Notes: a model not told the origin generated them from the sequence alone. A DNA stretch of 64,000 nucleotides from Nitrospinota bacterium (GCA_965223725.1 CBDCXE010000006.1:34357-98356); one strand, 5' to 3'; shown: positions 44,879 through 64,000, numbered from the stretch's first letter. A program made the numbers and translations.

Positions 44879-47251
44879 ATGAATTTGGCAGAAGTAGCAA
44901 TGGTTGACAAAACAGATGATTTAAAAGCAGTGATAGTAAAGCTCAAGGATGAAAACCTGATCCTTGAAAAACGGCTGGATACGTCTCAAAAAGTTCATTT
45001 CGACAAGAGCAACGATGAGCGAAGTGTGTTCCTGGACAAAATCAGCCATGAAATACGAACTCCCATAAACACAATTATCGGGATGACCCATCTGTGCCAA
45101 CAGTCCGAACTCAACCAGAAACAGCACAGCTATCTCAAAAAAGCGCATGAAGCCGAGTTATCTCTCCTCAACGTTTTTAATGAGATGCTTGACTATTTTA
45201 AAATCGAGATCAATAAGCTACATCTCGAGCCAAGAGATTTTTATCTGGCCGAAGTAATGGACAAACTGACTTCAGAAGTCGCCAACAAAGCGCATGATAA
45301 AGGTCTAGAGCTGATATTTGATATCGACTCTGACCTGCCCGATATTTTGCAGGGTGATCCATACCGGCTGCAGCAAGTTCTGATCAACCTTGCAACCAAC
45401 GCCATAGAGCATACGGATAAGGGCGATATCACCATTACCATCACCAAGGATTCAGATGGGAATGGTGAAGTAAAATTGCGTTTTTCGGTATGTGACACAG
45501 GCAGAAGCTTGAACAGGGAGCAGATCGACAGGTTATTCAGGCCATTTGTTCCGGAAGATATACATGCGCCAAGGAGAAATAGCGGAGCTGGTCTCGGGAT
45601 GCTTATCAGCAAGCATCTGGTTCAATTGATGGATGGCGAACTTTGGGTGAACAGCAAGCAGGATTTTGGCAACGAATTTATTTTCACCGCCACGCTGGAT
45701 GTGCGCGAAAGAATTGAAAAGAAGATCCTGGTTCCTAAAGCGAGGCTGAAGGATGTTCGCGCGCTGGTGGTGGACGACAATGAATCCGCTGGGCTTATCT
45801 TGAAATCGTTGCTGGAATCGTTGTCGATGGATGTTTCTGTTGTTAAATCGGCCGAAGAGTCATTCGTAGACCTGGAAATCGCTGAGAAGGTTGGCAGACC
45901 TTACGATATTTTGTTCATGGATTGACAGATGGAGGGCATGGATGGAATGGAGGCCTCGCGCCGGGTCAGAAATAGCATCTCGGTCAACCTGGAAACCATT
46001 CCAGTTATCATTCTGGTTACAGCATTTGGACAAAAAGATATTATAAAATCGGCTGGCAGGGATGATATAGACGCGTTTCTTGTAAAACCGGTCAGCCCGA
46101 CTGCGCTATTTAGTACCATAGCGGAAACTTATGCCGACAAACCTTCCCCCCCGGCCCGCAAACCCACTTATGGAAATAATGATTTGGCCAGAGCGATCAC
46201 CCACGATCTTTCCAGGGCCAAGGTTCTGCTGGTGGAGGAGAACAGCAACAACGATCAGCTAACCTCTAGAATATTAACTAACGCAGGCCTGAATGTTACT
46301 CAAGCAAGCAGCGAGCATCAGGCATTCACGGCGGCGCCTTTGTTTGACTACGATATCGTGCTGATCGATTTCCATAAACCAGGGATAGACGCGTATGGGA
46401 TAACAAATAGAATACGGAATAACCAAAAACATGCAAATGTCCCGATCATGGCCATGGTGGATGGCAACGCGCTTGCCGAGAAAGAAAGTTATCTGCAGGC
46501 AGGCCTGAACGACTGCATTGCCAAACCGGTCGAAGCATATGAGTTGATCCGTATGCTGGCCAAATGGATAAATAAAGACCGTGTAGTTGAAAAACCCGCC
46601 AGCAAAAATATAAATGAAGAAACAGAAAATGATAGCGCCATACAAGATATATCTGGGATCAATGTGCCAACAGGGCTTGCATACTCCGGCGGTAACTGGA
46701 AGCTGTACAAGCTGATATTGAAGAAATTTTATACAGACTATGCGAAGGCGATCACAGATATAAAAGAAATGATCGCGAACAATGATATGCAGACAGCCAC
46801 AAGGACCGCGCACAACCTCAAAGGCCTCTCTGGCAGCATTGGCGCCAACACGCTTAGTAAATATATAACTAGTCTGGAAGACGCTTTGCTCAATGGAAGC
46901 AATGCCGCAATTCCTGCATTGTTAGAGTCCAGTGACCAGGAATTGAAGAGAGTGATCGACGAATTGGAGTTTCTGGTCAAGGATGAGCAGGCAAAACAAC
47001 AGCCCACACCAAACGAAAAAATCAAGCCGGAAACCGGCGCCTTAAAGTTTCAAAAGCTAGTTAAGCTCCTTGCAAGTGATGACGCCAAGGCGGCCAAAGC
47101 GCTCGATGAAATCAAGGAGAGCTATCCTGACGGATATTTCAACGGCTCTCTGGAAAAACTTGAGTATTTTGTGGAGCATTACGACTATAAAGCCGCACAC
47201 CGCCTCGCAAAGAAAATAGCTCAGACCACGCCTTTCAGAGGGAACGGCTAA
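44879..47251 (+). pseudogene. Cytoplasmic hybrid histidine kinase (HisKA-HATPase-REC-REC-Hpt), interrupted by in-frame TGA at 45923-45925
   Basis: ORFs 44879..45925 and 45929..47251 are in frame: ILFMD*QMEGMDG. SHEIRTP H-box and AHNLKG Hpt are present; several catalytic motifs are degenerate. Confidence 0.8.
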
Positions 47252-48319
47252 GTGGAAAGAACGCTAGCCAGGGAAACCGTGTTGGTGGTCGATGATATGC
47301 CGGAAAACATCAGAATCATCGCTGATTTGCTGGCTGCCGATTATAACGTGAAGGTCGCAAAGAGCGGAGAGCGCGCACTGGAAATCGCCGCGGGCGATGC
47401 AAGGCCGGATCTGATTCTTCTCGATATCATCATGCCAGATATGGATGGATATGAAGTGCTGCAAAGCCTGAAGGCAAATCCGCTGACCCATCCAATTCCT
47501 GTTATATTCATCACCGCCCTGATGAGGCCGGAAGATGAAGAAAGGGGCTTGCAATTGGGCGCGGTCGATTATGTGACCAAACCGATAAGCCCGGCTGTGG
47601 TGCAGGCGCGGGTCAAAACCCACCTGGCCCTGTACGACCAGAGCAAATCGCTGGAGCATAAAGTCATGGAACGCACCTCCGAACTTCAGGAGACGCAGTT
47701 CGAAATTGTCCGGCAGCTTGCCAGGGCGGGTGAATTCAAGGATAACGAAACCGGGTTGCATATTGTGAGGATCAGCAAATATTCCAAAATGCTGGGTCAA
47801 AAAATCGGTCTTAATGTCAACGCCACAGAATTGCTGGCCCATGCCGCGCCGATGCACGATATCGGCAAGATAGGCGTCCCGGACAAAATATTGCTAAAAC
47901 CAGGAAAGCTGGACAGGGATGAGTGGAAAGTCATGAAAAGGCATCCACAATATGGTGTGGAAATTCTGGGGCAACATAAATCTGAATTGCTGGAATACGC
48001 CCAGATCATCGCATTAACACATCATGAAAAATGGGATGGGTCCGGCTATCCCAACCGGCTGAAGGGAGACCAGATACCTCTGCTGGGCAGGATCGTGGCC
48101 GTAGCGGATGTTTTCGACGCGCTGACCTGTGATCGACCATACAAAAATGCGTGGCCCGTGGATAAAGCGATAGACCATATACAAAGGGAAGGCGGTCGCC
48201 ATTTCGACCCGTACATCGTCGAAGCGTTTATGGATATCCAGGAGGACATCCTGGCCACCAGGCGAGAGCATGACGAGCCTTGCCACTCCTCACCAGCAAA
48301 CAGAATGGCTGTTCACTAA
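47252..48319 (+). CDS. REC-HD-GYP response regulator (c-di-GMP phosphodiesterase, RpfG-like)
   Basis: VVDD..LLDIIMP..TKP; HDIGKIG, HHEKWDGSGYP, ADVFDAL. Confidence 0.93.
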   Translation: MERTLARETVLVVDDMPENIRIIADLLAADYNVKVAKSGERALEIAAGDARPDLILLDIIMPDMDGYEVLQSLKANPLTHPIPVIFITALMRPEDEERGLQLGAVDYVTKPISPAVVQARVKTHLALYDQSKSLEHKVMERTSELQETQFEIVRQLARAGEFKDNETGLHIVRISKYSKMLGQKIGLNVNATELLAHAAPMHDIGKIGVPDKILLKPGKLDRDEWKVMKRHPQYGVEILGQHKSELLEYAQIIALTHHEKWDGSGYPNRLKGDQIPLLGRIVAVADVFDALTCDRPYKNAWPVDKAIDHIQREGGRHFDPYIVEAFMDIQEDILATRREHDEPCHSSPANRMAVH

Positions 48320-48320
48320 A

Positions 48321-49016
48321 ATGTACTATATCGAAAGAAAGGACTTGCCAACGATTGACCAGGCGCAGAATGTGCAGAGGGCTGTTGAATCGCTATCAGA
48401 ACATGACACGCAGGTGGCTGTGCTAAAAGCCCTGGAAGCTAACAGCGATATTCATTCTATCATTGTAAACGGACTGGTCGCCGGGCTGAAAGCTGTCGGT
48501 GAAAAGTGGATGAAACAGAAAATGTACAACAGCCATGTGCTGATGGCCGCAAAAGCCGTGAAGGCAGGTCAGGATGCGCTTGAGCGGAAATTGGCGCCAT
48601 TGGGCATTCGGCGGGGTCTAATAGTGCTGGGCACGGCGCAAGGCGACCTGCACGATGTGGGTAAAAGCCTGGCGGGGATGATGTTGAGGCTCGATGGCTG
48701 GGATGTGCGTGATATCGGCACAGAGGCGACACCCCGAATGTTTATGGAAAAAGCGAAAGAAGTGAACGCCGACCTGATAGGTATATCTATCGTCATGGGA
48801 ATATATCTCGACAAGATCCAACAGGTCTGTTCGCTGGTCCGGTCGGAGGGTATAAGGGCCAAAGTGATCATAGGCGGCCCCGGCTCCAACGACGCTGTCG
48901 CCAGGAAAGTCAACGCCCACACCTATGCCGGTTGCGACACGTTAGGCAGTCTGCAGGCGGCAAAGCGGCTGCTCGACCGGACGAAGAATGTGAGAGCCAG
49001 GACCAGACATATCTGA
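48321..49016 (+). CDS. Standalone cobalamin-binding (cap + Rossmann) protein
   Basis: GTAQGDLHDVGK (DxHxxG), IGIS, IIGG; ATG lies 1 nt after the HD-GYP stop. Confidence 0.85.
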   Translation: MYYIERKDLPTIDQAQNVQRAVESLSEHDTQVAVLKALEANSDIHSIIVNGLVAGLKAVGEKWMKQKMYNSHVLMAAKAVKAGQDALERKLAPLGIRRGLIVLGTAQGDLHDVGKSLAGMMLRLDGWDVRDIGTEATPRMFMEKAKEVNADLIGISIVMGIYLDKIQQVCSLVRSEGIRAKVIIGGPGSNDAVARKVNAHTYAGCDTLGSLQAAKRLLDRTKNVRARTRHI

Positions 49017-51927: not shown

Positions 51928-52361
51928 CTATTAATTCACAGTTTTCATCTGAAAAGCTTTTTACTATAACATGGTAAACCGATTCAGTTCGATACGTAAT
52001 AGTACTCTCCATCAACCCGGGCAACCACCATTAAAGCGTTTAACGCTTTGGTGCTTTAGCGTAGCTCCTTTCTGTTGCGCAGTTACGGCAGATTGCGCCA
52101 TTGCTTATTATCTTTAATAAACAAAATAACTGTTTATGATGAGCAAACGTGTTAAAAGGCATCGACTTAAATTCTGACAAGGTTATATAAATGCGCCTCA
52201 ATGCGCTTAGACAATGCTTGAAAATATCGGAAAAAACCAATATAATGGGGAAATTGGGAGACGCACATCGAATAGGAAAGTCGCTGGTCATGGCCTGATC
52301 CACTTTCGATTTTAACAAAGAATTTATACATACAATAGTGTGCGGAAAGGATTGCGCAATT

Positions 52362-52874
52362 GTGAGTAAAGCCATAATCAGACCATTGATGACCATGGAA
52401 AGTAGTAAAGCGGTGGATGTGATAAATGACGCCGCCACTGTTTATGATGGGGTCGTCGCCTCAGACGCGTTACCGACGCCATATATGTCCAAAGGTAGTT
52501 TTGTGATGGATATCGGTATGGGTGTCAAATTCTGGTGTGTCGACAAAGGAGGCGAGGTTCTGGGTGTTATGGGTCTCCAGAAAATCGATGGGATATCCCT
52601 GATTCGGCACGCCTATGTTCTCAAAAAATATCAGCGTAAAGGCGTTGGCAGTGGATTATTAAAACGGCTGACGACCGAACTGGATGAGCCTGTCCTGGTG
52701 GGGACCTGGAGAGACGCTGCTTCTTCCAATCAATTTTATGTAAAGCATGGCTTCACTAAAATCGATAGGGATGAAAAGGATCAGCTGCTTAAGAAATACT
52801 GGAAGATATCAGACCGGCATAGAGAAGAATCGGTGGTGTACGCCAACAAAAAATGGTTTGAGGCCGAGGGATAA
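52362..52874 (+). CDS. GNAT family N-acetyltransferase
   Basis: INDAA..YDG, LIRHAYV...QRKGVG, VGTW, FY.KHGF; start uncertain. Confidence 0.85.
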   Translation: MSKAIIRPLMTMESSKAVDVINDAATVYDGVVASDALPTPYMSKGSFVMDIGMGVKFWCVDKGGEVLGVMGLQKIDGISLIRHAYVLKKYQRKGVGSGLLKRLTTELDEPVLVGTWRDAASSNQFYVKHGFTKIDRDEKDQLLKKYWKISDRHREESVVYANKKWFEAEG

Positions 52875-52913
52875 ACCATATATTCGCGCCTGGCAAGGCG
52901 GAAGACCTGCTAT

Positions 52914-54182
52914 TCAGAAGCGGTATCCTGCGTAAAGAAAATAAGTTACCGCATTGAACTTATCTGATGTTTTAGCCAGCGCGATGCTATCGATATCTAG
53001 ATACTCCTCGTTGGACAATTCTATCGAACCTGACACAAAAAACGTATTGCCCGGGTACCAGTCTGCGCTGAATCCATAAATCCACTGTTCCAGAGTATTG
53101 GACGTGCCCTCCTGTTCGTTGGTCATGAAGGTCACGTTGGCTTCCACACTCAGGTTATCGTCCACATCCGCGCCGATGGCGCCAAAATATTGGATAATAT
53201 CAGATGTGAAATAGTTGATCGAGCGGAACGCCACATCATAATAGAACCAGTTAAAAAAGTCGGTCTGTTTCAATCCACCCCATATCAGGGACGCGGATTT
53301 TCCATCGCTCTCCCTGGTTCGTGTATCGAAACTTCCATAGATGGTCATGGTTTTCGTAACCTTCACCCTGCCGGCGGCGCGCAGTGTGGTCTGCAGCTCA
53401 TGGTTGAGGTCATAATCCATCGACTCAAACAGCCGGATGGCACGATACTGGTTATAACTAAAATCGAGGGATACATTCTCGTTCGGAATAAAGTTGGCGC
53501 TCAGGTAAAAATTAGTCAGCTCGTTGCCACCGGAATCGGCGTTATGATCGGACCGGGCGGTTCCGTATAACCGGAGGCTTTCCGACATGTTGTAATAGCC
53601 GGACCCATACAGGTACGATTTATCGTCGCCGCCTTTGAATGTGCTCATAACATATCCGCCGCTCACCCCGGCTGTGGGGTTATTGGTGAACCCATACAGT
53701 CCATACATCATATAGTCGCCGTTCACGATATCGTCGTAAGGGTCAGGCTCCAACCCACCGAACAGCCCTACTCCTGATGTTTCGCCCAACGGATACACAA
53801 TGTTCGCGCCATCCAGCCTGGCGGTGGGCATATAGTCTATATACTGTCTGCCCAGATGGATATCGACCAGCGAAAACGCCTGCTTGAACTCCAGCTTGGC
53901 TGTTTCAAACCTGGCGCCCGGAATGTCCTCGCTGAATGTTCCGGAGCCGGATGAACGGGTGGCCCCTTTCAGGCGAAGCGCTGTGCCATCGCCTATCAGC
54001 TCTTCCACATTCAGACGTATCCGAACCCGAGTGATGGAAAAATCTTGCGCCGCGACATCATCATCGCGGTTATAAATGGAGCCGGAGATAAACCCGGTGA
54101 CGCTCTGGGCCAGAGCGGACACAGGCGCCAGGACGCAACCTATGGCCAGCGAGCAGGCAAGAAACCGTTTTGTCAATCGCAT
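52914..54182 (-). CDS. Outer-membrane beta-barrel protein (porin of a porin-cytochrome complex)
   Basis: Signal peptide (ALA-Q), many amphipathic aromatic-rich strands, LGRQ..RLDG, C-terminal BAM signal YAGYRF; start overlaps the 3' end of the cytochrome gene. Confidence 0.82.
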   Translation of the reverse strand: MRLTKRFLACSLAIGCVLAPVSALAQSVTGFISGSIYNRDDDVAAQDFSITRVRIRLNVEELIGDGTALRLKGATRSSGSGTFSEDIPGARFETAKLEFKQAFSLVDIHLGRQYIDYMPTARLDGANIVYPLGETSGVGLFGGLEPDPYDDIVNGDYMMYGLYGFTNNPTAGVSGGYVMSTFKGGDDKSYLYGSGYYNMSESLRLYGTARSDHNADSGGNELTNFYLSANFIPNENVSLDFSYNQYRAIRLFESMDYDLNHELQTTLRAAGRVKVTKTMTIYGSFDTRTRESDGKSASLIWGGLKQTDFFNWFYYDVAFRSINYFTSDIIQYFGAIGADVDDNLSVEANVTFMTNEQEGTSNTLEQWIYGFSADWYPGNTFFVSGSIELSNEEYLDIDSIALAKTSDKFNAVTYFLYAGYRF

Positions 54183-56464
54183 CTGATAAAATCCTTGGCC
54201 ATATCAAAGTCGATGGTGTTATGACATAATGTGCATGTGGTCGGGCACGCCGGCGCGCCGGGCGGATCCCCATTGGCGTGTTCTTTTCTGTAATCGGCCC
54301 TGTGGCACGATATGCAATCGCTCTCCACCATCGCCCCGGGGAACTTCAGCGCGCCGCCACTACCCACATGGCACTTGCTGCAGTCGCCCTGGATCTCGCG
54401 GTGGCTGCCGGTGAATGTCATGCTCTTGTGGGCGTGGCTGCCGAAGGCGCCGCTCCAGTCGTATGGCCTGTGGCAGTTTTCGCAATTGGTATTGCCTGGT
54501 GTGTGGGCGCTTATATTGCCGGCGTTAAAGAACTCTTTTTGATGACAACTGAAGCAATCAACCGGGGTTCCACGATAGTCACGCCGGCTGTGGCAATCTT
54601 TACACTCCGCCGCCCTGTGGAGCCCCTCCAGCCGGAAGCCTGTGGTATTGTGGCGGAACTTCAGCGGATCCCAGCTCAACGCCTTGTGACAATCGGAGCA
54701 GTTGGAGCCGAACTGGTTGAAATGCGGGTCGGTGTGGCACTGCTGACAATCGGACCCGGAGCCTTTGTCGAACTTCACCGCTTTATGACAGTCGCCGCAC
54801 ATCAAGACGCTGTGGGCGCCGGTCAGCCGAAAGCCGGTGACCGCGTGGAAAAACTGGTCGGTTTTCCAGGTGTCTGCGCTGTGACAATCGCCGCATCGCG
54901 GGCCGAAGGTTCCTTTATGCTTGTCATCCTTATTGTGGCAGTCGATACACTCGTTACCGATCGGTTTCCAGACGGTTTTCTTTTTTATGGTGTGGCAGTC
55001 GGCGCATTTGGTGGATATGTGCTTGCCCTTGAGCGCAAACCGGCTGTGCTGGTTGTGAACGAACGATGTCTTCTTCCAGTCGTTCTCCACCTTGTGGCAG
55101 ACTTCGCATTTTTTATCGTCCAGCTTGCCTTTATGCGGATCCATATGACAGCTTTTGCTGGCGCAGCTTTCTGTTTTGATCGGCCTGTAATGCGCCGACT
55201 TGGTCACACGATTCGGTTTGTGACATTTTTCGCATTTGACCTTCTTATGTTTACCAACCAGCTTGTAACCTTTATAGGAACTGGCGCTATGGCTGAACAG
55301 GGTCGGTCTCCACCCTTTGACGCTGTGGCACTCTTCGCACTTTTTACCCTTGAACTGGTTGCCATGGATCGCGCCCCGTTTGCGGGTGTCATGACAGCCG
55401 GATGCGTCGCATGTGTCGAACTTTTCGACTTTGAAAATATTTTTCTTCCTATGGCACTTCTCGCATTTCACCTTCCGGTGTTTACCGGTCAGCGGGTATT
55501 TGGTTTTCGCGTGGTTGAACTTTACCGATTTCCAGCTATCGGTTTTATGACAGTCCACGCAGGTTGACCCCAGGGTACCTTTATGTTTGTCATCCTTTTT
55601 GTGGCAGGTGATGCATTTCTCATAGCCCCGGACCTTGAAGACGCCCTTCTTCTTGTGGCAATTTTCACATTTCACTTTCTGATGCTTGCCGGTCAGCTGG
55701 TATTTGGTTTTTGAATGGTCGAATCGTACTTCTTTCCAGGTGGTGGCTTTATGGCAATCTTTGCAGGCAGAGCCCAGGGTTCCTTTATGTTTGTCATCCT
55801 TCTTGTGGCAGGTGATACATTGCTCATAGCCCGGGACCTTGAAGATCCCCTTGGTCTGATGGCACTTCTCGCACTTGACCTTCGCATGCCCTGTATCCAG
55901 CTTGTACACCTTGTCATGGTCGAAGGTCACATCCTTGCCTTTCCAGCTGAAAGCGGTATGGCAGGTCTCGCACCGGGCGCCTAAAGTGGGTTTATGTATA
56001 TCAGCGTGGCACGATGCGCAGGTATTGTCGGCCAACAGATAGCTTTGCTGACCTTTTTTGGTTTTCGCCTTGTGGCAATCCACACATGCGGTTTTAGCGT
56101 GCCTACCGGTCAGCGGGTATCCGGTGTTCGCCATGCCATGGTCGAACTTTTTCGGCTCCCACTCGACCATGGAGAAGGCTTTGCCCTTATGGTCGGAGTG
56201 GCACTTGAAACACTTCTTATCGGTTACAGTGGAGTGATATCCTGTCTTTCGTTTGATGCGGGCGTCGATATCTTTATGGCAATCGAGGCATTTCCGGTCC
56301 GGGATACCACCGCGAAGTTCATGGCACTCGGTACATTTGGTAATTCCGGTCAGGTCGCCATGCAGCACGGATAATTCGCCAGGGCTTATCAGTTTACCCA
56401 GGTCCTGGGCATAGGCGTTTGCGCTAAGCGCAAACAAAAGACCCACAATTACCCTTAGAATCAA
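54173..56464 (-). CDS. Periplasmic 30-heme c-type cytochrome (tandem c7-like triheme modules)
   Basis: Signal peptide (AYA-Q). Manual count: 28 CxxCH + 2 Cx4CH (CDASGCH, CASKSCH). Repeating FDH..T.Y.L.G.H module; Lys-rich. Confidence 0.93.
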   Translation of the reverse strand: MILRVIVGLLFALSANAYAQDLGKLISPGELSVLHGDLTGITKCTECHELRGGIPDRKCLDCHKDIDARIKRKTGYHSTVTDKKCFKCHSDHKGKAFSMVEWEPKKFDHGMANTGYPLTGRHAKTACVDCHKAKTKKGQQSYLLADNTCASCHADIHKPTLGARCETCHTAFSWKGKDVTFDHDKVYKLDTGHAKVKCEKCHQTKGIFKVPGYEQCITCHKKDDKHKGTLGSACKDCHKATTWKEVRFDHSKTKYQLTGKHQKVKCENCHKKKGVFKVRGYEKCITCHKKDDKHKGTLGSTCVDCHKTDSWKSVKFNHAKTKYPLTGKHRKVKCEKCHRKKNIFKVEKFDTCDASGCHDTRKRGAIHGNQFKGKKCEECHSVKGWRPTLFSHSASSYKGYKLVGKHKKVKCEKCHKPNRVTKSAHYRPIKTESCASKSCHMDPHKGKLDDKKCEVCHKVENDWKKTSFVHNQHSRFALKGKHISTKCADCHTIKKKTVWKPIGNECIDCHNKDDKHKGTFGPRCGDCHSADTWKTDQFFHAVTGFRLTGAHSVLMCGDCHKAVKFDKGSGSDCQQCHTDPHFNQFGSNCSDCHKALSWDPLKFRHNTTGFRLEGLHRAAECKDCHSRRDYRGTPVDCFSCHQKEFFNAGNISAHTPGNTNCENCHRPYDWSGAFGSHAHKSMTFTGSHREIQGDCSKCHVGSGGALKFPGAMVESDCISCHRADYRKEHANGDPPGAPACPTTCTLCHNTIDFDMAKDFIRCD
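55571..55980 (-). repeat. Near-identical 204-nt (68-aa) internal duplication in the 30-heme cytochrome
   Basis: CAGGGT.CCTTTATGTTTGTCATCCTT.TTGTGGCAGGTGAT at 55571 and 55775 (CITCHKKDDKHKGTLGS twice); outer boundaries approximate. Confidence 0.8.
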
Positions 56465-56582
56465 GCTGTCCCCACTAGCCTAAAGTTAATTTATAAAAAA
56501 GCTGCAGCAGCCTTAAATACTTCTCCGACCGCAGCTGCATATATTATTTAACTATTTCCACCAATATCAATATTGACTGATA

Positions 56583-57590
56583 TCAATCGTCGTCATCGTC
56601 GTCATCGTCGTCATCGTGGTCATCGTCGTCGTCATCCGGGTTGTCGCTGCCGTGGCACGCCCTGCATGCCTGAGATTTGACCTGGCTATGGCTATATCGC
56701 CAGCTAATACCGAATGTATGGCACCATTCGCAGTTATAGCCTGCGAAATGGCGACTATGGCAGCTGGCGCAATCGCTGGTAATACCCTGATGGGAAAACG
56801 TGACCCCACTCCACTTCGGGTATTTGTGGCAGTTTTCACAAGTGGCGCCAAAATGTTTTTGCGGTGCTGTGGCCGCATGACAGTTGGAGCAACCTGTTGT
56901 ATGGTTATGGGCGCCGCCGGATATGTTGCTCCATTTCGGGTATTTGTGGCAGTTTTCACAGTTTACTTTCCTGCCATCGTTATGGCTGGCCGGCGCTTTA
57001 CCGACGTGGCAATTGGCGCACCCAGTTGCGTGGGTATGCGCTCCGCCACCGCCACTTAAGCTCCATCGCCCGGAAGAGTACTGATGACAAGTATCACAGC
57101 CGGTTTTTCGGCCATTGTTGTGGCTGGCTGGCGCTCTGCTGGTATGGCAGGTTTCGCACGAATTTTTGATCCCGTTATGAAAGGTTGTATGACTTATTCT
57201 TGTATGAGATGTAAAACTGTCTGAATAGTGACAGGAGTTGCAGTATGTCCCTGTTTGAGCCGTGGCATGGTTCAGGAACCGGGTCCTGTTATATTGATCC
57301 ACATGGCAGTTTAGGCAGATCTGGGCGCCCGGCACATCCCTGGAATTTTCTGTAAACATTATCGAGCGCGCAGTCTGATGACAGCTGTTGCAATCCATGC
57401 TGGCGTGGCGGCCAACCTGATACTGCCTGTGCCAATCTGGTGATGGTTGAACGCCTATCCCGTTCCAGTTTGTCTGAGGTGTGGAGCCGCCGCCTGACCC
57501 GCCATCATCACCCCCGCCGCCGGAGCACCCAACAGCAACCAGGGAAACAGCAAGCCCAATCGCTATCAGAATATACCTGGAATAGTTCAT
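56583..57590 (-). CDS. 12-heme c-type cytochrome lipoprotein with C-terminal poly-Asp tail
   Basis: Lipobox VAVG-C plus Gly/Ser linker; 12 CxxCH counted; ends D6-H-D10. Confidence 0.92.
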   Translation of the reverse strand: MNYSRYILIAIGLAVSLVAVGCSGGGGDDGGSGGGSTPQTNWNGIGVQPSPDWHRQYQVGRHASMDCNSCHQTARSIMFTENSRDVPGAQICLNCHVDQYNRTRFLNHATAQTGTYCNSCHYSDSFTSHTRISHTTFHNGIKNSCETCHTSRAPASHNNGRKTGCDTCHQYSSGRWSLSGGGGAHTHATGCANCHVGKAPASHNDGRKVNCENCHKYPKWSNISGGAHNHTTGCSNCHAATAPQKHFGATCENCHKYPKWSGVTFSHQGITSDCASCHSRHFAGYNCEWCHTFGISWRYSHSQVKSQACRACHGSDNPDDDDDDHDDDDDDDDDD

Positions 57591-57684
57591 ATTATTCTCC
57601 GCTCATTTAGCACATTCAGTAATTTATATTTGTATATAAACAGCATTACCAACAATAGCCCGCAGGCATACCGTACTAAAATTC

Positions 57685-57701
57685 AGCACATATGGCGCCA
57701 A
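57685..57701 (-). promoter_or_regulatory. Sigma54 (-24/-12) promoter of the cytochrome-porin operon
   Basis: TTGGCGCCATATGTGCT = GG-N10-GC, about 95 nt upstream of ATG 57590. Confidence 0.6.
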
Positions 57702-57833
57702 AGAATATTTTCAGATGACCACAGCGTCTACAGCATCAGGCAACAATAGATAAATGCTTAATTTCATACGGTTTACTGAGTACTAATAGCTGCGTAGTGG
57801 TTATTTTATGGCGGGATTATCGTATGTTTTATC

Positions 57834-57873
57834 TTGTCCTGAATCAAGACAACTGTACTAATAACAATACAGT
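57834..57873. promoter_or_regulatory. Tandem palindromes, candidate enhancer sites for a sigma54 activator
   Basis: TTGTCCTGA-A-TCAAGACAA (TGT-N11-ACA) and ACTGTA-N10-TACAGT (TGT-N12-ACA), about 135-175 bp upstream of the -24 box. Confidence 0.5.
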
Positions 57874-57915
57874 GACTCCTCTAGCAGAGCAGTTTGAACA
57901 TGGAAAAACGAAAGC

Positions 57916-59274
57916 TCAGTTATCCAGTTTGTATTTCTTGATCATGCGATAGACATTCCGTTCGCTGACCCCGAGGGCGGAGGCGAGGCCGCTTCTATGG
58001 CCCCGGTATTTATCTAGAAGGGTTTTCAGATAGCTCATTTTGATTTCCTCCAGTGTCGGTTCATGGTCGAAGCTAAAGCTGACAGGCGCAGCGTTACCGG
58101 CTCGACCTTGCGGTAAACCCAGGTGCTCTGGCTGGATCGTCGGGTCATCAGCGGATAATATAATTGCTCTCTCTACCACATTACGCAGTTCTCGCACATT
58201 TCCGGGCCAGTCGTAAGCGCCAAGGGTATGGAGGGCGCTTGGCGAAAGCTTTTTGCTAATACGTCGAGAGAAATCGTGATAATCAATAAAATGCTCCACC
58301 AGGTCAGGAATATCCTCCCGCCTCTCCCGCAATGGTGGAACTTTTATACTGAAAGCGCTCAATCGATAAAACAGATCCGCTCGAAATTCGTTCTCTTTCG
58401 CCATCGACTCCAGGTCCCGGTTGGTGGCCACAAGAATCCGGGCGTCCGATTGCAGGTCCTTGGTCCCGCCCAGTCGGCGGAAATTACCGGTTTCCAGAAT
58501 ACGCAACAACTTGGCCTGCATGGCTTGTCCGATCTCGCCGATTTCATCGAGGAATAGCGTCCCACCCTTGGCGCCTTCAACCAATCCTTTTTTCTGACGG
58601 TCGGCGCCGGTGAATGCGCCCCGCTCATGACCAAACAGCTCCGACTCAAACAGGTTCTCTTGTAAAGTACAGCAATCGAGTGTGACAAAGTTGCGATCAG
58701 TTCGTGTTCCAAGGTCATGGATTTCCCGCGCCACCAGCTCTTTGCCGACACCGCTTTCGCCTGTAATAAGAACGTTTACATCCTCACGGGCGACAGAGCG
58801 TATAAGTTCATTTACCTGATTCAATGCATCGGAGCGGCCCACCATAAACGATTTGCGGCCAGCCCGCTCCCGAGACCAGACAAACTGGTAGTCCTGGCGC
58901 ATTTCAGCGTATCCCAATGTACGATGCACAGTAAGCTCCAGCTCTACAAGGTTGACCGGTTTAACCAGGTATTCGGCGACTCCCTGTTTCATGGCGTCCA
59001 CAGCGTTTTTTACCGATCCGTATGCGGTTAACACGATAACCGGAGCCTGCGCCACCAAATCCGGCACCATGCTCAACCCATCCACATCGGGTAGCTGGAT
59101 ATCGAGAAGGATCAGGTCTGGCTCATACTTTTCCAAGTATTTGTTTGTTTCGGCGCCAGAGTGTACACCAGTCACTACGAACCCCAGTTCTGTAAGTTGG
59201 CTCACCATAAGCTCGTTGAAAACCTTGTCGTCATCGACGACAAGTATGCTCTTTTTAAGCTGATTGCTTCTCAT
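57916..59274 (-). CDS. Sigma54-dependent response regulator (REC-AAA+-HTH, NtrC family)
   Basis: VVDDD..LLDIQLP, GESGVGKE, ESELFGHERGAFTGA, FLDEIGE, WPGNVREL. Confidence 0.95.
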   Translation of the reverse strand: MRSNQLKKSILVVDDDKVFNELMVSQLTELGFVVTGVHSGAETNKYLEKYEPDLILLDIQLPDVDGLSMVPDLVAQAPVIVLTAYGSVKNAVDAMKQGVAEYLVKPVNLVELELTVHRTLGYAEMRQDYQFVWSRERAGRKSFMVGRSDALNQVNELIRSVAREDVNVLITGESGVGKELVAREIHDLGTRTDRNFVTLDCCTLQENLFESELFGHERGAFTGADRQKKGLVEGAKGGTLFLDEIGEIGQAMQAKLLRILETGNFRRLGGTKDLQSDARILVATNRDLESMAKENEFRADLFYRLSAFSIKVPPLRERREDIPDLVEHFIDYHDFSRRISKKLSPSALHTLGAYDWPGNVRELRNVVERAIILSADDPTIQPEHLGLPQGRAGNAAPVSFSFDHEPTLEEIKMSYLKTLLDKYRGHRSGLASALGVSERNVYRMIKKYKLDN

Positions 59275-59276
59275 AA

Positions 59277-61172
59277 CTAACCCAGTATAACCTTCTCTTT
59301 GGAATAATCCGCCAATGGTAAAGTGACTGTGAATGTTGTCCCTTTACCTGGTTCACTGGCAACGCTGATATTACCATAATATCTTTCTATTATTGCTTTG
59401 CAGATGGTAAGCCCCAATCCGGTGCCTTCATTCTGGTCGGCTCGACGAGAGAAGAACGGAGCGAATATATGCTCCCTGATATCAGGGCTGATGCCCACAC
59501 CACTATCCTCAAACTCCAGTATCGTTTTATCATCTTTAGAGCATCCTCGAATAATTAATCGGCCACCTTCTGGCATGGAATGAAAAGCGTTCTGAACAAG
59601 GTTTAAAACGAGCATCCGTATCTCGCTCTCCGTGGCCAGCACACGCGGCTCTCCTTCGATCTCCACCTGCAGATCAACACCCCTGTTGTCAGCCTCATAT
59701 TTCAGCAGCGAGGTCACCTCTGGGATAGCCTGCTTCAAGGATACCAGTTGCACATGCTCGGATGGCGGCATGGAAAGGTTGAGCATCCGCCGGGTAACAT
59801 CGATACATTTATCAACTTCATCATCCACCTGACGAAGATAGTCCATCACTTTACTATCTGTTTTGCCGGTTTCCGACACCCTCAACAACGCTTGCAGCCC
59901 CAACCGCACCGAAGCCAATGGGTTGTGAATTTCGTGGGCGACACCGGTGGCCAGCTGACCAAGCTCGGCCATATGTTGCTCTTGCGTTGTTTTCATCTGT
60001 TTTTCCAGATCACGGATTACTTCGACCACATAGGTCCTCTCTTTACCGCCACGGTTGATTTTCAGTGGCGCCGCATATATCTCCACCGGCAGCTCTGCGC
60101 CATCCTTTCGCCGATATCGATGAACCATTTTCAGAGGAGTCTCGTCACGTTCAAACTCGTACATTGGGCAAGTAATCAGGCTGGGCGGACATGGTTCATC
60201 ACGGCCATGGCTGGACGCATAACAGAAGGTTCCCTCAATATTTGTCATATCCACATCGAAATGATGGCAATACGCTTTGTTAGCCAGCAGGATTCGATAG
60301 TTCTCATCAATGACCCGTATGCCATCCGGAGCGGCATTTATCATCGATTGCAGAAACTCTTCATGCGTCTTCAACTCGGCCAGGGTTTGCTCCAGCTTTT
60401 GCGCCATTATATTAAAGGAGCTTCCCAGCTGCGCCAATTCATCCTCACCCTGACTGCCAACCCGCGTATCCAGCCGCCCTTCCGACAGGCGCCCGCTGGC
60501 AATGGAAAGCGCGTTGACAGGAGACACCACCGTCGCTTTTATAAACAACCAAGCAGCGATTAGCGCCAGCAACACCACAAGGCCGCTGGATGCAGCAAGG
60601 GTGGCGGCGCCAAATAAAGCTTTTCGTTGTATACCTGCCGCTTCATAATCGACAAGCAGTATGCCATTAATCGGATTATCCTCTATGGAGCCGTGGCATC
60701 CGGCGCACTGCTCCTTGTTGCTGATTGGGTTTACACTGCGTAATACTTCCTGCCCTGCGGCGCCAGTCATAAACCAAGCCATACTTTTCGGAATGGTGTC
60801 AATTTTGGCGCAATCGGCGCATCCTGTGATATCCCCGGTCGACAGAAAACTTTCCAGAAGGGACTGGTCGGATGAAAACCGTACTACCAGCTCCGGATTG
60901 GTAATCATCACGCTTCGAACACTTTTTTGCTCTCCCAGACGCTCGACGATTTCGGCAAGCCCAGACAAGTCTCTCTTCAGCATGGCATTCTCCAAAGATG
61001 TCTGAAGAAGGAAATTTACCTGCATCGAAGCGTCCGCCCTCTCCTTTTCCAGCTGAACCTTGTACAAGCTTATAAATCCGATAAGCAGAATCAGCAATGA
61101 CACGGCCAAAATGGCGGCCAGCCCGGCAAGAAGCTTCCGGCTCAACGATTGTTTAAACCATTGCAAGCTCAT
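59277..61172 (-). CDS. Sensor histidine kinase with periplasmic CxxCH heme domain, HAMP and Cys-rich PAS
   Basis: Two TMs flanking CADC and CAGCH; PAS with CY..HG..PC....CP; AHEIHNPL, NLVQNA, DSGVGI, GTGLGL. Confidence 0.92.
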   Translation of the reverse strand: MSLQWFKQSLSRKLLAGLAAILAVSLLILLIGFISLYKVQLEKERADASMQVNFLLQTSLENAMLKRDLSGLAEIVERLGEQKSVRSVMITNPELVVRFSSDQSLLESFLSTGDITGCADCAKIDTIPKSMAWFMTGAAGQEVLRSVNPISNKEQCAGCHGSIEDNPINGILLVDYEAAGIQRKALFGAATLAASSGLVVLLALIAAWLFIKATVVSPVNALSIASGRLSEGRLDTRVGSQGEDELAQLGSSFNIMAQKLEQTLAELKTHEEFLQSMINAAPDGIRVIDENYRILLANKAYCHHFDVDMTNIEGTFCYASSHGRDEPCPPSLITCPMYEFERDETPLKMVHRYRRKDGAELPVEIYAAPLKINRGGKERTYVVEVIRDLEKQMKTTQEQHMAELGQLATGVAHEIHNPLASVRLGLQALLRVSETGKTDSKVMDYLRQVDDEVDKCIDVTRRMLNLSMPPSEHVQLVSLKQAIPEVTSLLKYEADNRGVDLQVEIEGEPRVLATESEIRMLVLNLVQNAFHSMPEGGRLIIRGCSKDDKTILEFEDSGVGISPDIREHIFAPFFSRRADQNEGTGLGLTICKAIIERYYGNISVASEPGKGTTFTVTLPLADYSKEKVILG

Positions 61173-61190
61173 GGCTGCATAACCTGTCGC

Positions 61191-62237
61191 TCAATCATAA
61201 ACCTGAAACAGCTTTGCGTCTTGGCCCTTGCCAGAGCATATATGGCATTGGTTGTTTCTGACTCCAGACTCCTCTGGATAGTGGTATGAGACCCCACAAG
61301 TGTAGCATCGTTTCCTGGTTAAAACCAACCGGCTCCGATCTAGGGGCGCAATACTTAGCAGATGTATCGCATCCTTATCACAAATATCCAGGCACAATCC
61401 ACAACCTGTGCAGTTGCCGGCATCTATCCGGTACGCTTCATTTTGGCTGTCGCGATCCAGAGATATGGCGCCATGGGGGCAAACGCTTATGCATGCGTCA
61501 CAACCGACACAATCTTGTGGCAAAAATTCCGGTACATGAACATACAGCGCGGCAAGCGTCGGTGAGGCGTCCGGCAAGCCAGGATACGCCATATTGTCGG
61601 AACTGCTGTTTTCAACTATTTCTGATGTAACGGAGCTGAAATATTTGGCCATGCTCTGAAAAAACCGACGTTTGCTTTTGTCCGTCGGTCCCAACGGCAA
61701 CGCCTTATCATACCGGTTTTGCCATTGGTTACTGGACAAGGTTTCCATATGGAGAGGCTTTGCGCCACGGGATTTCAGAAGCGCATTTGCTTTATCGATT
61801 TTATTTTGTAAAGAATCAGCATTGCCACGGGCGCAATCTGCACATCTGCCTGACGCAACTACGAGACGCTCGCCTTCTCTTCCATATAACCAAAACAGGT
61901 CTCTGAGTCCAAGGGCATGGACACAGGGTAGTAGCGCGTCACCTTTTTCTTCCAGTTGATCGCAAGCTGCAAAAGCGCTTGGGCCGCCTGTCTCTTCCCG
62001 AATATCCAGTTGCAAGGTGGGCAATGCAATAACATTTTCTGGACAAGCGGGCACACACAAACCACAACCGTCACACTTTTGCTCGTCAAACAGCAACGCG
62101 TCCTCATCAAGCAACAACGCGCCATGTGGGCAGACAACACAACATTCTGCGCAGCTTGCATTCGGGCACAATGAATGCACACAACGTTTGGTGTTTAGTT
62201 CGATCATGTTTCTATTGGCGCCATCATAGCTGTTCAA
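61191..62237 (-). CDS. Polyferredoxin / 4Fe-4S binding protein
   Basis: CAECCVVCP, CDGCGLCVPACP, CVGCDACISVCP, CTGCGLCLDIC and further Cys clusters. Confidence 0.85.
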   Translation of the reverse strand: MNSYDGANRNMIELNTKRCVHSLCPNASCAECCVVCPHGALLLDEDALLFDEQKCDGCGLCVPACPENVIALPTLQLDIREETGGPSAFAACDQLEEKGDALLPCVHALGLRDLFWLYGREGERLVVASGRCADCARGNADSLQNKIDKANALLKSRGAKPLHMETLSSNQWQNRYDKALPLGPTDKSKRRFFQSMAKYFSSVTSEIVENSSSDNMAYPGLPDASPTLAALYVHVPEFLPQDCVGCDACISVCPHGAISLDRDSQNEAYRIDAGNCTGCGLCLDICDKDAIHLLSIAPLDRSRLVLTRKRCYTCGVSYHYPEESGVRNNQCHICSGKGQDAKLFQVYD

Positions 62238-62408
62238 GCAAAGGCGCTAACCTTGATATGCATCTGTTTGTGACCCGGATGAAATAATAAAATGAAATGA
62301 AAAGTAAATTATTTCAATATAAAGAGCATTATACCAAAATAACTTTTCAAAAGGTTCAGGATTCAGGAAACCTGATAACCATAACAGCGCTCTTTATTTA
62401 CGAACCCC

Positions 62409-63119
62409 TCAGGGGCCACTGCTCAACAGCTCTGGCCGGGCATACCCGGACATGGCGGTGATCATGTTACGTTGTTCATTAAGATAAGCCACCGTCAACA
62501 TGGCCAGCCCTTTATAAAACGATGATGCGTCGCTGTCGACCACCCGCTCCGCGAACGCATGTATCCACAGCAGTAAATGCTCATCAAGAAACCGCGCCAC
62601 TTCCTCAATCGGCACAGCCGCTTCTTTGCACAACAGATGGGCAGCGAATTCCAGCTGCAACGCAATATGGTCATCCGGTTGGTCACGCCAGTTTTTAACT
62701 ACCATTTCATAATGTTTATACCACGCGCGGACAGAGAACATCGCCTCCTGACGCTCCAGATGGTCTTCATCCAGCCATACAGATTCATAAGGTGACGCTC
62801 GAAAACGATGGGTCAGGTAAATGTCAGCATAGTCCGCGGCAAGACTATCTATATATGCTTTCTCGGTTTGCTGGTCCGCAAGCGCCAGGCCTTTATCTAT
62901 AAGTGATATGCCCTCTTTAGCCAGCGAGCTATTCAGAACCAGCCCCAGCAACGACGCAAAAGGATAGATGCGTAAATCACGAATCATCCCTACGGTCAGT
63001 TCTGTACTATGAAGAAATGCCAATAGTTGCAAATCGGCGGCGGCCGCGCCCCACAGGCTGTTTAAACTGGGTTCGACCTGCTTGCATTCGGATGTTTCAT
63101 GGTTGGCGGCGAGACTTAT
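62409..63119 (-). CDS. TorD/DmsD-family molybdoenzyme maturation chaperone
   Basis: SPYESVW, PDDHIALQLEF, FLDEHLLLW. The frame is open upstream of TTG 63032 to an ATA at 63119 preceded by SD AGGGAG; start uncertain. Confidence 0.85.
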   Translation of the reverse strand: MSLAANHETSECKQVEPSLNSLWGAAAADLQLLAFLHSTELTVGMIRDLRIYPFASLLGLVLNSSLAKEGISLIDKGLALADQQTEKAYIDSLAADYADIYLTHRFRASPYESVWLDEDHLERQEAMFSVRAWYKHYEMVVKNWRDQPDDHIALQLEFAAHLLCKEAAVPIEEVARFLDEHLLLWIHAFAERVVDSDASSFYKGLAMLTVAYLNEQRNMITAMSGYARPELLSSGP

Positions 63120-63781
63120 TTTACGACTCCCTTTTTGTGCGCTACAAACCTGATGGATGGGTTTGTCAGCTCCGGGTTAGCCATCGATCTGACCTGACGG
63201 ACCACATGGTCATCTGGTCCTACTGCTTTGGTATCGTATGATCCATCGCTAATCTGGTCGATAGGCCCCACGTCCAGCACGCGCATCAGGCAGGCCATGA
63301 CGCAATATGGTTTCCGGCCAGCATCGATTTCGTCGACGCAGAAATTGCATTTGGAGACGATATTCTGCTCTGGTATAAATTGCGGCGCCCCATACGGGCA
63401 GGCAGCCTCGCATCGGCGGCACCCAATACACAACGTCGAATCGATATCGACGATACCGTCGGCTGTCCGTTTAAATATTGCCCCGGTTGGGCATGTGGGC
63501 AAACAGGCCGGCTCAGCGCAATGGTTGCAGGACATATTAACCTTGTAGGCATACAGGTCTGGATATGCGCCGCCTTCAACATAGGTAACTCTGCGGAAAC
63601 GAGGACCAGGCGCTAGACCGTTTTTATCCTTGCAGGCGATCTCGCACGATCGGCAACCAATGCACTCTGTATTATTATGAATAAAACCAAGCTGCTTCCC
63701 TGGCTTCACCGGGGTATAGACTACCCGTTGCTTTCTTTTTACAACAGCAACGGCGCCCTCTTTGTTGGCTTTTTCTGTCAT
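63116..63781 (-). CDS. DMSO-reductase-family four-cluster Fe-S subunit (DmsB-like)
   Basis: CIGCRSCEIACK, SCNHCAEPACLPTCP, CIGCRRCEAACPYGAP, KCNFC..PYCV.AC; TNPS near the C-terminus. Confidence 0.9.
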   Translation of the reverse strand: MTEKANKEGAVAVVKRKQRVVYTPVKPGKQLGFIHNNTECIGCRSCEIACKDKNGLAPGPRFRRVTYVEGGAYPDLYAYKVNMSCNHCAEPACLPTCPTGAIFKRTADGIVDIDSTLCIGCRRCEAACPYGAPQFIPEQNIVSKCNFCVDEIDAGRKPYCVMACLMRVLDVGPIDQISDGSYDTKAVGPDDHVVRQVRSMANPELTNPSIRFVAHKKGVVK

Positions 63782-63791
63782 TGGGCTATTC

Positions 63792-64000
63792 TCACTTTTT
63801 ATGCTGAGGGTTGCGGCGAAAGACATGGGAGCGGGAAGTGGCCAGCTTGTCCCAGCCGGGCTTGTGTTCCAGGTTGGACTTCTTTATTTTTGCAAGCCCT
63901 GTATTGAAAGCAAACGCTCCCGCCGGGCTGGGGGTATCGCTGGTCAGGAAGTTGGCGTTGCCGCCCCGGTCCACCCCGTTTTCATCCAGATCCATCCATG
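63792..64000 (-). CDS. C-terminus of a molybdopterin oxidoreductase catalytic subunit (DmsA-like); truncated by the window
   Basis: WMDLDENGVDRGGNANFLTSD.PSP resembles the DmsA-type domain IV end; directly upstream of the dmsB-like and torD-like genes. Confidence 0.75.
   Translation of the reverse strand, partial: WMDLDENGVDRGGNANFLTSDTPSPAGAFAFNTGLAKIKKSNLEHKPGWDKLATSRSHVFRRNPQHKK

Follow-up and report, generated by a model that had tools for sequence, protein, structure and literature searches.

We analysed a stretch of 64,000 nucleotides (nt) from a Nitrospinota bacterium (GCA_965223725.1 CBDCXE010000006.1:34357-98356, in our labelling G000:C6:34357-98356; hereafter, the window), focusing on the genes at window positions 52914–64000, which an earlier reading of this DNA (hereafter, the original prediction) had proposed as a candidate extracellular respiratory module that wires a dimethyl sulfoxide (DMSO) reductase-family molybdenum (Mo) enzyme and a redox sensor to a 42-haem porin–cytochrome conduit. 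In our assessment, these genes very probably form two adjacent and unrelated modules, namely an imported Mo-enzyme cassette damaged by an insertion sequence (IS), and a native porin–cytochrome conduit built on an undescribed barrel family. The former (57916–64000, and about 2.8 kb beyond) would be a Pseudomonadota-type cassette that, within the phylum, is carried by this genome alone, and the latter (52914–57590) a lineage-native conduit, the 30-haem c7-polymer wire of which is modelled as threaded in a 22-strand barrel. The proposed machine of Mo enzyme, sensor and conduit is most likely an accident of gene order, and not a new respiratory system.

One line of evidence for this reading is the absence of linkage between the two halves elsewhere. 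We scanned for the cassette using one genome per species, finding 586 stretches that encode relatives, and analysed the best 80 loci; for the conduit, we examined 20 of the 26 relatives in the phylum with a barrel match, omitting G003, G007, G016, G017, G027 and G030 (short contigs or partial matches). None of the 20 Nitrospinota conduit loci contains a match of at least 60 bits to DmsA, DmsB, TorD, the polyferredoxin or the regulator (0/20), and neither the barrel nor either of the big cytochromes occurs in the 80 proteobacterial cassette loci (0/80), only two of which contain any reading frame with at least seven CxxCH motifs. The single respiratory module of the original prediction is not supported by these counts, as its two halves are linked in none of these loci, and no conserved synteny of the Mo enzyme with the barrel and cytochromes is found among the 20 + 80. 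The underlying description of the genes was nevertheless accurate: all nine co-oriented genes are found on the minus strand at 52914–64000 in the order described, and Pfam and NCBIfam scans confirm the family labels; the haem motifs, counted as CxxCH or CxxxxCH, do come to 42, with 30 (28 CxxCH and 2 CxxxxCH) in a 763-amino acid (aa) protein and 12 CxxCH in a 335-aa protein; and no DmsC or NrfD follows the iron–sulfur (Fe–S) subunit, with PF03916 and PF04976 lacking a match in or beside the cluster. The nearest NrfD (PF03916) or DmsC (PF04976) match lies about 84 kb away on the same contig, and genes of both families are present elsewhere in the genome.

The distribution of the cassette points away from Nitrospinota. 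All of the best 80 of the 586 loci belong to Alpha-, Beta- or Gammaproteobacteria (Pseudomonadota), with DmsA identities of 75–81%, and their carriers include Hyphomicrobiaceae, Competibacter, Sedimenticola, Thiodiazotropha, Dechloromonas, Sulfuritalea and Azoarcus; the protein cluster closest to the DmsA-like protein (82% identity) is likewise labelled Hyphomicrobium sp. Of 33 genomes of the phylum, the present one alone has a DmsA orthologue, and the next-best match is partial and only 34% identical. Counting homologues inside the fetched flanks of the 80 loci, where many misses reflect loci cut by contig ends, we find dmsB in 79, the upstream cytochrome discussed below in 78, torD in 74, the kinase in 56, the regulator in 53, and the polyferredoxin, which appears to be an optional member, in 40. 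The kinase aligns over its full length with the cassette kinases at 39–56% identity, a periplasmic CxxCH being present in 52 of the 54 of them with the N-terminal part aligned, and the regulator is 46–65% identical to the regulators beside proteobacterial cassettes; among the 32 other genomes of the phylum, the sensor half of the kinase has no orthologue. Because homologues of both proteins recur in the proteobacterial cassettes, we assign the sensor and regulator to the enzyme: judged by homology, they travel with the Mo enzyme and not with the conduit.

The catalytic subunit lies in the window with its last 69 codons (63792–64000), the whole gene comprising 867 codons and extending to window-equivalent position 66395. 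The 867-residue product carries the twin-arginine motif RREFLK and a PF10518 twin-arginine translocation (Tat) signal, such that the part of the gene past the window's end, which the original prediction had left to be checked, points to export by this route; a lipobox or other surface-targeting feature was not seen there. Its best curated family is DmsA/YnfE (TIGR02166; 639.1 bits, below the cut-off of 777.7), and in an alignment with Rhodobacter DorA (PDB 1eu1), its Ser228 takes the position of the Mo ligand Ser147. We also considered ArrA/ArxA, TtrA, PhsA and type II enzymes as assignments, which we rejected, since their NCBIfam scores are far under those for DmsA/YnfE. The N-terminal Fe–S motif (residues 80–88) reads C-x3-C-x3-H, with His in the place where the canonical motif has its third Cys. 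Because this motif is invariant, and the sequence context of Ser228 kept, in 80/80 relatives, the DmsA-like protein marks, in terms of sequence, a distinct clade akin to DmsA/YnfE. Our literature searches on this clade found no characterized member, and the database names for the enzyme are generic ("DMSO reductase").

The remaining cassette genes follow in order. The DmsB-like subunit (63116–63826) is a four-cluster Fe–S protein with 16 Cys, the best curated family of which is TIGR02951 (189.7 bits, below the cut-off of 214.1); its start is probably Met16 (63781), past the dmsA stop, and relatives mostly align from residue 16. Next come a Tat-proofreading chaperone of the TorD/DmsD family (62409–63032; PF02613, E 1.2e-22; 93.4 bits against NCBIfam TorD, below the cut-off of 132) and a 348-aa cytoplasmic polyferredoxin with 26 Cys and without signal peptide (61191–62237). 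The sensor kinase (59277–61172) has two transmembrane helices with a periplasmic domain between them that bears a single CxxCH at residue 156, followed by HAMP, PAS, HisKA and HATPase domains, and an NtrC-type sigma54-dependent response regulator (57916–59274; Pfam/NCBIfam) is the last cassette gene.

A membrane-anchor gene upstream of the catalytic subunit would, by the terms of the original prediction, speak against a single module, and the sequence past position 64000 counts against it in this respect. Directly upstream of dmsA lies a 156-codon reading frame with two CxxCH, which is the remnant of the gene for a pentahaem cytochrome, putatively membrane-anchored, that is intact in the relatives' cassettes. 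We read out this upstream cytochrome in 16 of the 78 proteobacterial loci that contain it, and in all 16 it comprises about 270–500 aa with 5 CxxCH (6 in one fused form); a hydrophobic N-terminal stretch is visible by eye in most, bearing in mind that some frames may start upstream of the true start. Three intact copies score 23.9, 22.1 and 24.6 bits against PF03264 (NapC/NirT), the cut-off of which is 24.1. The fused form comes from Rhodovulum imhoffii (L084:8443-9939, plus strand; 498 aa, 6 CxxCH), where the cytochrome is joined to an extra N-terminal part, and a frame with 10 CxxCH lies just upstream of it on the opposite strand (L084:7653-8417, minus), which makes this one of the two loci noted above for a frame with at least seven CxxCH.

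In the present genome, homology to the pentahaem cytochrome stops at C6:101116, where a 1,230-bp IS3-type element (C6:101118-102347) abuts the remnant, cutting inside the third haem motif. What is left begins at the His of this motif and matches roughly the last 118 residues of intact relatives, so that the IS has cost the gene its putative membrane anchor, haem sites one and two, the cysteine pair of site three and anything further upstream; a tblastn search (E<=1e-3) located the missing N-terminal half nowhere in the genome. The element is present in nine full copies and one partial copy, with the eight other full copies on other contigs, and in the copy beside the cassette (region C6:101118-102447) the terminal ~49–50 bp occur as a triple tandem repeat. 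The stretch past the IS (L002:7473-9887, where L002:5118-6448 equals C6:101118-102447) encodes the N-terminal fragment of an integrase, a full-length tyrosine recombinase and a tRNA-Ala(GGC), an arrangement that suggests an old integration hotspot. Because the IS removed the anchor, haem sites and upstream region, the cassette in this genome is probably uncoupled or decaying.

The conduit half of the original prediction fared better, in that a porin–cytochrome conduit is supported by a conserved gene pair, a predicted 22-strand barrel, a complex model that passed its controls, and a lipobox in the 12-haem protein, whereas a place for the Mo enzyme and sensor in this conduit is not supported. 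The barrel (52914–54182; 422 aa, with a signal peptide) matches no family in Pfam or NCBIfam, and 27 of the 33 genomes of the phylum encode it. Directly beside it, 20/20 of the relatives' loci hold a homologue of the 763-aa cytochrome, with 17–38 CxxCH where the gene could be read whole. Neighbours outside this pair vary by locus, with none conserved across the 20; no gene in the 50 kb around the cluster (C6:75000-125000) has a counterpart beside the conduit in the 20 loci. In most genomes of the phylum, the conduit consists of two genes only, and a clear homologue of the 12-haem lipoprotein lies upstream of the pair solely in three same-family relatives (L015, L018, L032), with a weak match in L019.

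More broadly, a profile search of 1.84 billion representative proteins detected 940 relatives of the barrel with E<=1e-3, of which 37 had E<=1e-30, and no informative family could be assigned to any of them. Names in the protein collection are uniformly "hypothetical protein", and the ESM Atlas gave unnamed clusters only. Among 368 genomes of other phyla, nine encode a distant barrel relative, and a homologous 20–32-haem cytochrome (30–37% identity) lies directly upstream on the same strand in eight of these nine loci, the ninth ending at a contig edge. Because the pair is intact in 20/20 Nitrospinota and 8/9 other-phylum loci, the cytochrome–barrel pair is, by gene content and order, a conserved cross-phylum module. 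Our searches of the literature found no description of such a pair in Nitrospinota. As observations on individual loci, two giant cytochromes precede the barrel in L138, L139 and L146 (G325, G368 and G051; 32+24, 20+31 and 20+19 CxxCH, respectively), G150 and G174 have genes for an NtrC-type regulator and a kinase close to the barrel, and the distant barrel relatives P0031, P0032 and P0033 carry N-terminal SPOR (peptidoglycan-binding) domains, with different N-terminal extensions in others.

The secreted 763-aa cytochrome (54173–56464) is a c7-type polymer, as judged by its motif count and by PF14522 (E 2.2e-35, 5 stretches), with 28 CxxCH and 2 CxxxxCH giving 30 haem motifs at 25 aa per haem, and the 3' end of its gene overlaps the beginning of the barrel gene by 10 nt. 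The 335-aa lipoprotein cytochrome (56583–57590) has 12 CxxCH, or 28 aa per haem, and a Gly/Ser/Asp linker behind its lipobox Cys, which makes it a candidate surface partner of the conduit on the strength of its sequence features. The lipobox is kept in all homologues, the tails of which are Asp-rich, acidic or His-rich (Gly-His-Gly-Asp repeats). In the present protein, the C-terminus (window 56583–56640) consists of six Asp, one His and ten Asp, and this poly-Asp tail may bind cations or minerals. Being of low complexity, the stretch also attracted unrelated contigs, seen as a spike in depth, in the comparison that gave the run X1 contig described below.

An AlphaFold2 model of the barrel, based on a 17-sequence alignment, has 22 strands and short loops (predicted local distance difference test (pLDDT) 83.6, predicted template-modelling score 0.72). 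Foldseek comparison with the PDB returned generic barrels only (usher, OprD-type porins), with query-normalized template-modelling scores <=0.50, and MtrB was not among the matches listed. We then modelled cytochrome residues 298–763 with the mature barrel in three runs alongside three controls, as the original prediction had proposed, and the pair came out clearly ahead, scoring 0.79, 0.79 and 0.80, compared to 0.01 for the best control. When calibrating this score, that mark was reached by 58/80 solved complexes and by 2/110 mismatched pairs. The runs share at least 83% of contacts, with a partner pLDDT of at least 83. Cytochrome residues ~541–669, which form the invariant core of the family, are predicted to lie inside the 22-strand barrel, touching barrel residues from 29 to 421 in the model, with contacts that include positions placed near the periplasmic strand ends and others near the outer ends. 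According to the interface list, the threaded segment would contain six haem motifs, with 22 motifs in the roughly 520 mature residues ahead of it and three in the roughly 94 residues behind it.

The two modules meet at a 325-nt intergenic region (57591–57915, minus strand), which holds a sigma54-like −24/−12 element (57685–57700; two mismatches, with GG and GC kept) and, about 135 nt upstream of this element, the 17-nt palindrome TGTCTTGATTCAGGACA (57835–57851). This raises a coupling that would be regulatory only, in which the conduit operon has come under the control of the haem-sensor kinase and sigma54 activator imported with the cassette, without the enzymes interacting: 325 nt separate the end of the activator gene from the lipoprotein-cytochrome gene downstream, the gap contains the sigma54-like element, the palindrome sits at a distance typical of an activator site, and the IS replaced the cassette's own upstream region. 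However, a sigma54-like element is found upstream of the lipoprotein-cytochrome gene in 4/4 same-family loci, three of them without an adjacent two-component system, and two of these three relatives have a near-identical palindrome as well; a one-mismatch sigma54 element also lies upstream of the big cytochrome in 3 of 11 two-gene loci. The palindrome type is absent upstream of all 62 proteobacterial cassettes inspected (0/62), and our scans for a sigma54 promoter of these cassettes yielded nothing of note, with matches in 4/64 upstream regions against 2/64 antisense controls, or 1/60 against 0 in a narrower scan. Because the elements recur in relatives lacking the two-component system, and the palindrome is missing from the proteobacterial cassettes, a native activator for the conduit is the simpler reading of these sequences, and we consider co-option of the imported pair unlikely. 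Scans for terminators and sigma70 promoters across 52000–64000 were not usefully above shuffles.

The same gap, with its own promoter-like elements, also separates the units physically, and this bears on the stronger proposal of one composite extracellular respiratory module, in which an anchor-less DmsAB would exchange electrons with the 42-haem conduit, perhaps because it needed to once the IS had removed the pentahaem cytochrome. Such a composite would account for genes that are co-oriented and adjacent, for the lack of a DmsC/NrfD gene beside DmsAB, and for a truncated cytochrome in a cassette that is otherwise intact, and both partners would meet in the periplasm. We nevertheless find it quite improbable, as the linkage occurs in this genome only, the enzyme clade normally has its own pentahaem cytochrome and does without an outer-membrane conduit, and DmsA shows no surface-targeting feature. 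We allow a slender chance that a hybrid has newly formed here, such that the IS-orphaned DmsAB exchanges electrons with the 30-haem wire, and the imported sensor and activator drive the conduit operon; if this were true, it would amount to a Mo enzyme plugged into a trans-envelope nanowire, caught mid-assembly through gene transfer and transposition. Finally, the two modules could owe their adjacency to an assembly artefact, with a proteobacterial fragment misjoined to a Nitrospinota contig, considering that the nearest cassette relatives (the best 80 of 586) are all Pseudomonadota and that the source is a metagenome-type assembly (6 contigs; genome of 2.7 Mb). Against this, a 9,002-nt contig of run X1, which may be the source sample, bridges the junction and covers 56588–64000 without difference, the IS that cuts the cassette occurs in full eight more times on this genome's other contigs, the composition of the cassette matches that of the genome, and no proteobacterial copy is more than 82% identical to it. 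We therefore give a misjoin next to no credence.

Several observations weigh against our own interpretation of an imported, damaged cassette beside an unrelated native conduit. The G+C content of the cassette (51.4%, compared to 50.5% for the genome) gives no foreign signal, half of the 9-kb windows of the genome deviate at least as much as the cassette in their tetranucleotide profile, and a search of ~45 kb turned up no att-like repeat of the 3' end of tRNA-Ala. Because composition is ordinary and no such repeat was found, our case for transfer into this genome, the presumed direction, is a distributional one. All six cassette genes that remain have unbroken reading frames, and the cassette may still function with a different electron partner. 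As for independence from the conduit, contig ends cut short the flanks at several of the relatives' loci, and cross-regulation is possible given a sigma54 activator in the cassette and a sigma54-like conduit promoter 220 nt downstream; in addition, matches to the sigma54 consensus across the whole window are not above chance (29 found, 38.8 expected). Turning to the threading, the complex score of 0.79 is the model's own confidence, the calibration of which holds only roughly, as our own alignments were used. Mtr-type barrel–cytochrome complexes have solved structures, and part of the model's pass could stem from likeness to them. Lastly, the model is haem-free and leaves the orientation of the cytochrome ends undecided.

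Taking these points into account, the reading of two unrelated modules suggests the following functional picture. The cassette would encode a Tat-exported, Ser-ligated Mo-bis(pyranopterin guanine dinucleotide) enzyme together with the DmsB-like, TorD-like and polyferredoxin proteins and a two-component system of its own. Where the cassette is intact, the putatively membrane-bound pentahaem cytochrome would act as a TorC/NapC-like quinol dehydrogenase, moving electrons between the quinone pool and periplasmic DmsAB, by analogy with TorC, which passes electrons between the quinone pool and TorA. The haem kinase would sense a periplasmic redox or ligand signal and turn the operon on through sigma54, and in the present genome this pathway has lost its cytochrome and upstream region. 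In the conduit, a single 30-haem polypeptide could span the periplasm, by analogy with c7 polymers, while the barrel would insulate the passage through the outer membrane; in this family of the phylum, the wire may exchange electrons with the 12-haem surface lipoprotein and its acidic tail. Overall, the conduit probably serves electron transfer across the outer membrane, in one direction or the other, with a partner that is insoluble or cannot permeate it.

In Shewanella oneidensis, DmsEFAB is an extracellular DMSO reductase wired via the decahaem cytochrome DmsE and the porin DmsF. The present locus resembles it in having a DmsA/DmsB pair without DmsC, near genes for multihaem cytochromes and an outer-membrane barrel. 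In contrast to DmsEFAB, it has no DmsE-family cytochrome (TIGR03508 scores of 32.6, 27.6 and 16.6 bits, compared to a cut-off of 192.2), its barrel matches neither DmsF/MtrB nor any other Pfam or NCBIfam family, and its enzyme clade has a pentahaem cytochrome of its own, with enzyme and conduit not being co-inherited (0/20, 0/80). TorCAD/DorCDA-type systems comprise a membrane cytochrome with five haems and a Ser-ligated Mo enzyme, along with a TorD chaperone. The intact cassette shares their order of putatively membrane-anchored pentahaem cytochrome, catalytic subunit and TorD-like protein, and Ser228 corresponds to the Mo-ligand Ser position of DorA; it differs in that the catalytic subunit keeps an N-terminal Fe–S motif and has a DmsB-like partner, that the cytochrome is shorter and borderline for NapC/NirT (PF03264), and that regulation would run through a haem kinase and a sigma54 activator. 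For these systems, see also PMC11727998. Escherichia coli DmsABC/YnfEFGH provide the best-scoring curated families for both subunits, and share the Tat signal and the four-cluster B subunit, but here both subunits score under the cut-offs, DmsC is missing, and the Fe–S motif is C-x3-C-x3-H.

On the conduit side, Geobacter Pcc/Ext and Shewanella MtrCAB place a periplasmic multihaem cytochrome inside an outer-membrane barrel and add a lipoprotein multihaem cytochrome. The present conduit has the same predicted architecture of barrel, multihaem cytochrome and lipoprotein cytochrome, but without a sequence-family match for the barrel or the cytochromes, with 22 predicted strands and a 30-haem c7-repeat wire, and mostly as two genes. 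Geobacter also has the c7-polymer "nanowire" cytochromes GSU1996, GSU0592 and GSU2210, which share the tandem c7-type domains (PF14522, 5 stretches here), whereas the polymer here is paired with a dedicated barrel, both genetically and in the model. PCC3, as described by He et al. 2017 (PMC5566968), has a porin with up to 42 transmembrane regions, haem-rich cytochromes with 22–39 aa per haem, and a conserved inner-membrane protein of ~300 aa in its cluster. Like PCC3, the present locus clusters a porin gene with very haem-rich cytochromes, with 25 and 28 aa per haem falling within that range, and 3/9 other-phylum loci have two giant cytochromes before the barrel; unlike PCC3, its barrel has 22 predicted strands, and no neighbour is conserved across the 20 loci. 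We set PCC3 apart by these features, and our barrel family might already be counted under PCC3. The literature consulted also includes PMC11442690, PMC11995701, PMC10654088, PMC11237559 and bioRxiv 10.64898/2025.12.05.692423.

Each of the two modules remains of interest in its own right. In nearly all sampled members of this phylum, a pair of genes encodes an outer-membrane "wire in a barrel"; the family of the barrel is without a name in the databases searched, and homologous pairs occur in several other phyla. If the conduit works as modelled, it would permit electron exchange with outside partners, for example iron, manganese, humics or partner cells. Nitrospinota are known mainly for nitrite oxidation. 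In the whole of the present genome, no type II (nitrite oxidoreductase/NarG-like) alpha subunit scores above the cut-off (best 122.6 bits, compared to 984.75), and the source organism may therefore not be a nitrite oxidizer, so that it could plausibly rely on a different electron donor or acceptor. The Mo-enzyme cassette, in turn, represents a very widespread and strongly conserved clade in sulfur-oxidizing and denitrifying Proteobacteria that is annotated only as "DMSO reductase". Genes annotated as dmsAB are reported to be highly expressed in the symbionts of lucinid clams and to lie beside genes for sulfur oxidation, although these may belong to a different clade from the cassette.

Outside of the nine genes, the window holds a signalling cluster on the plus strand (44879–49016), which comprises a histidine kinase core, a receiver–Hpt protein, a receiver–HD (HD_5) protein and a protein with a B12-binding domain, and which is closed by a 396-aa protein without a family.

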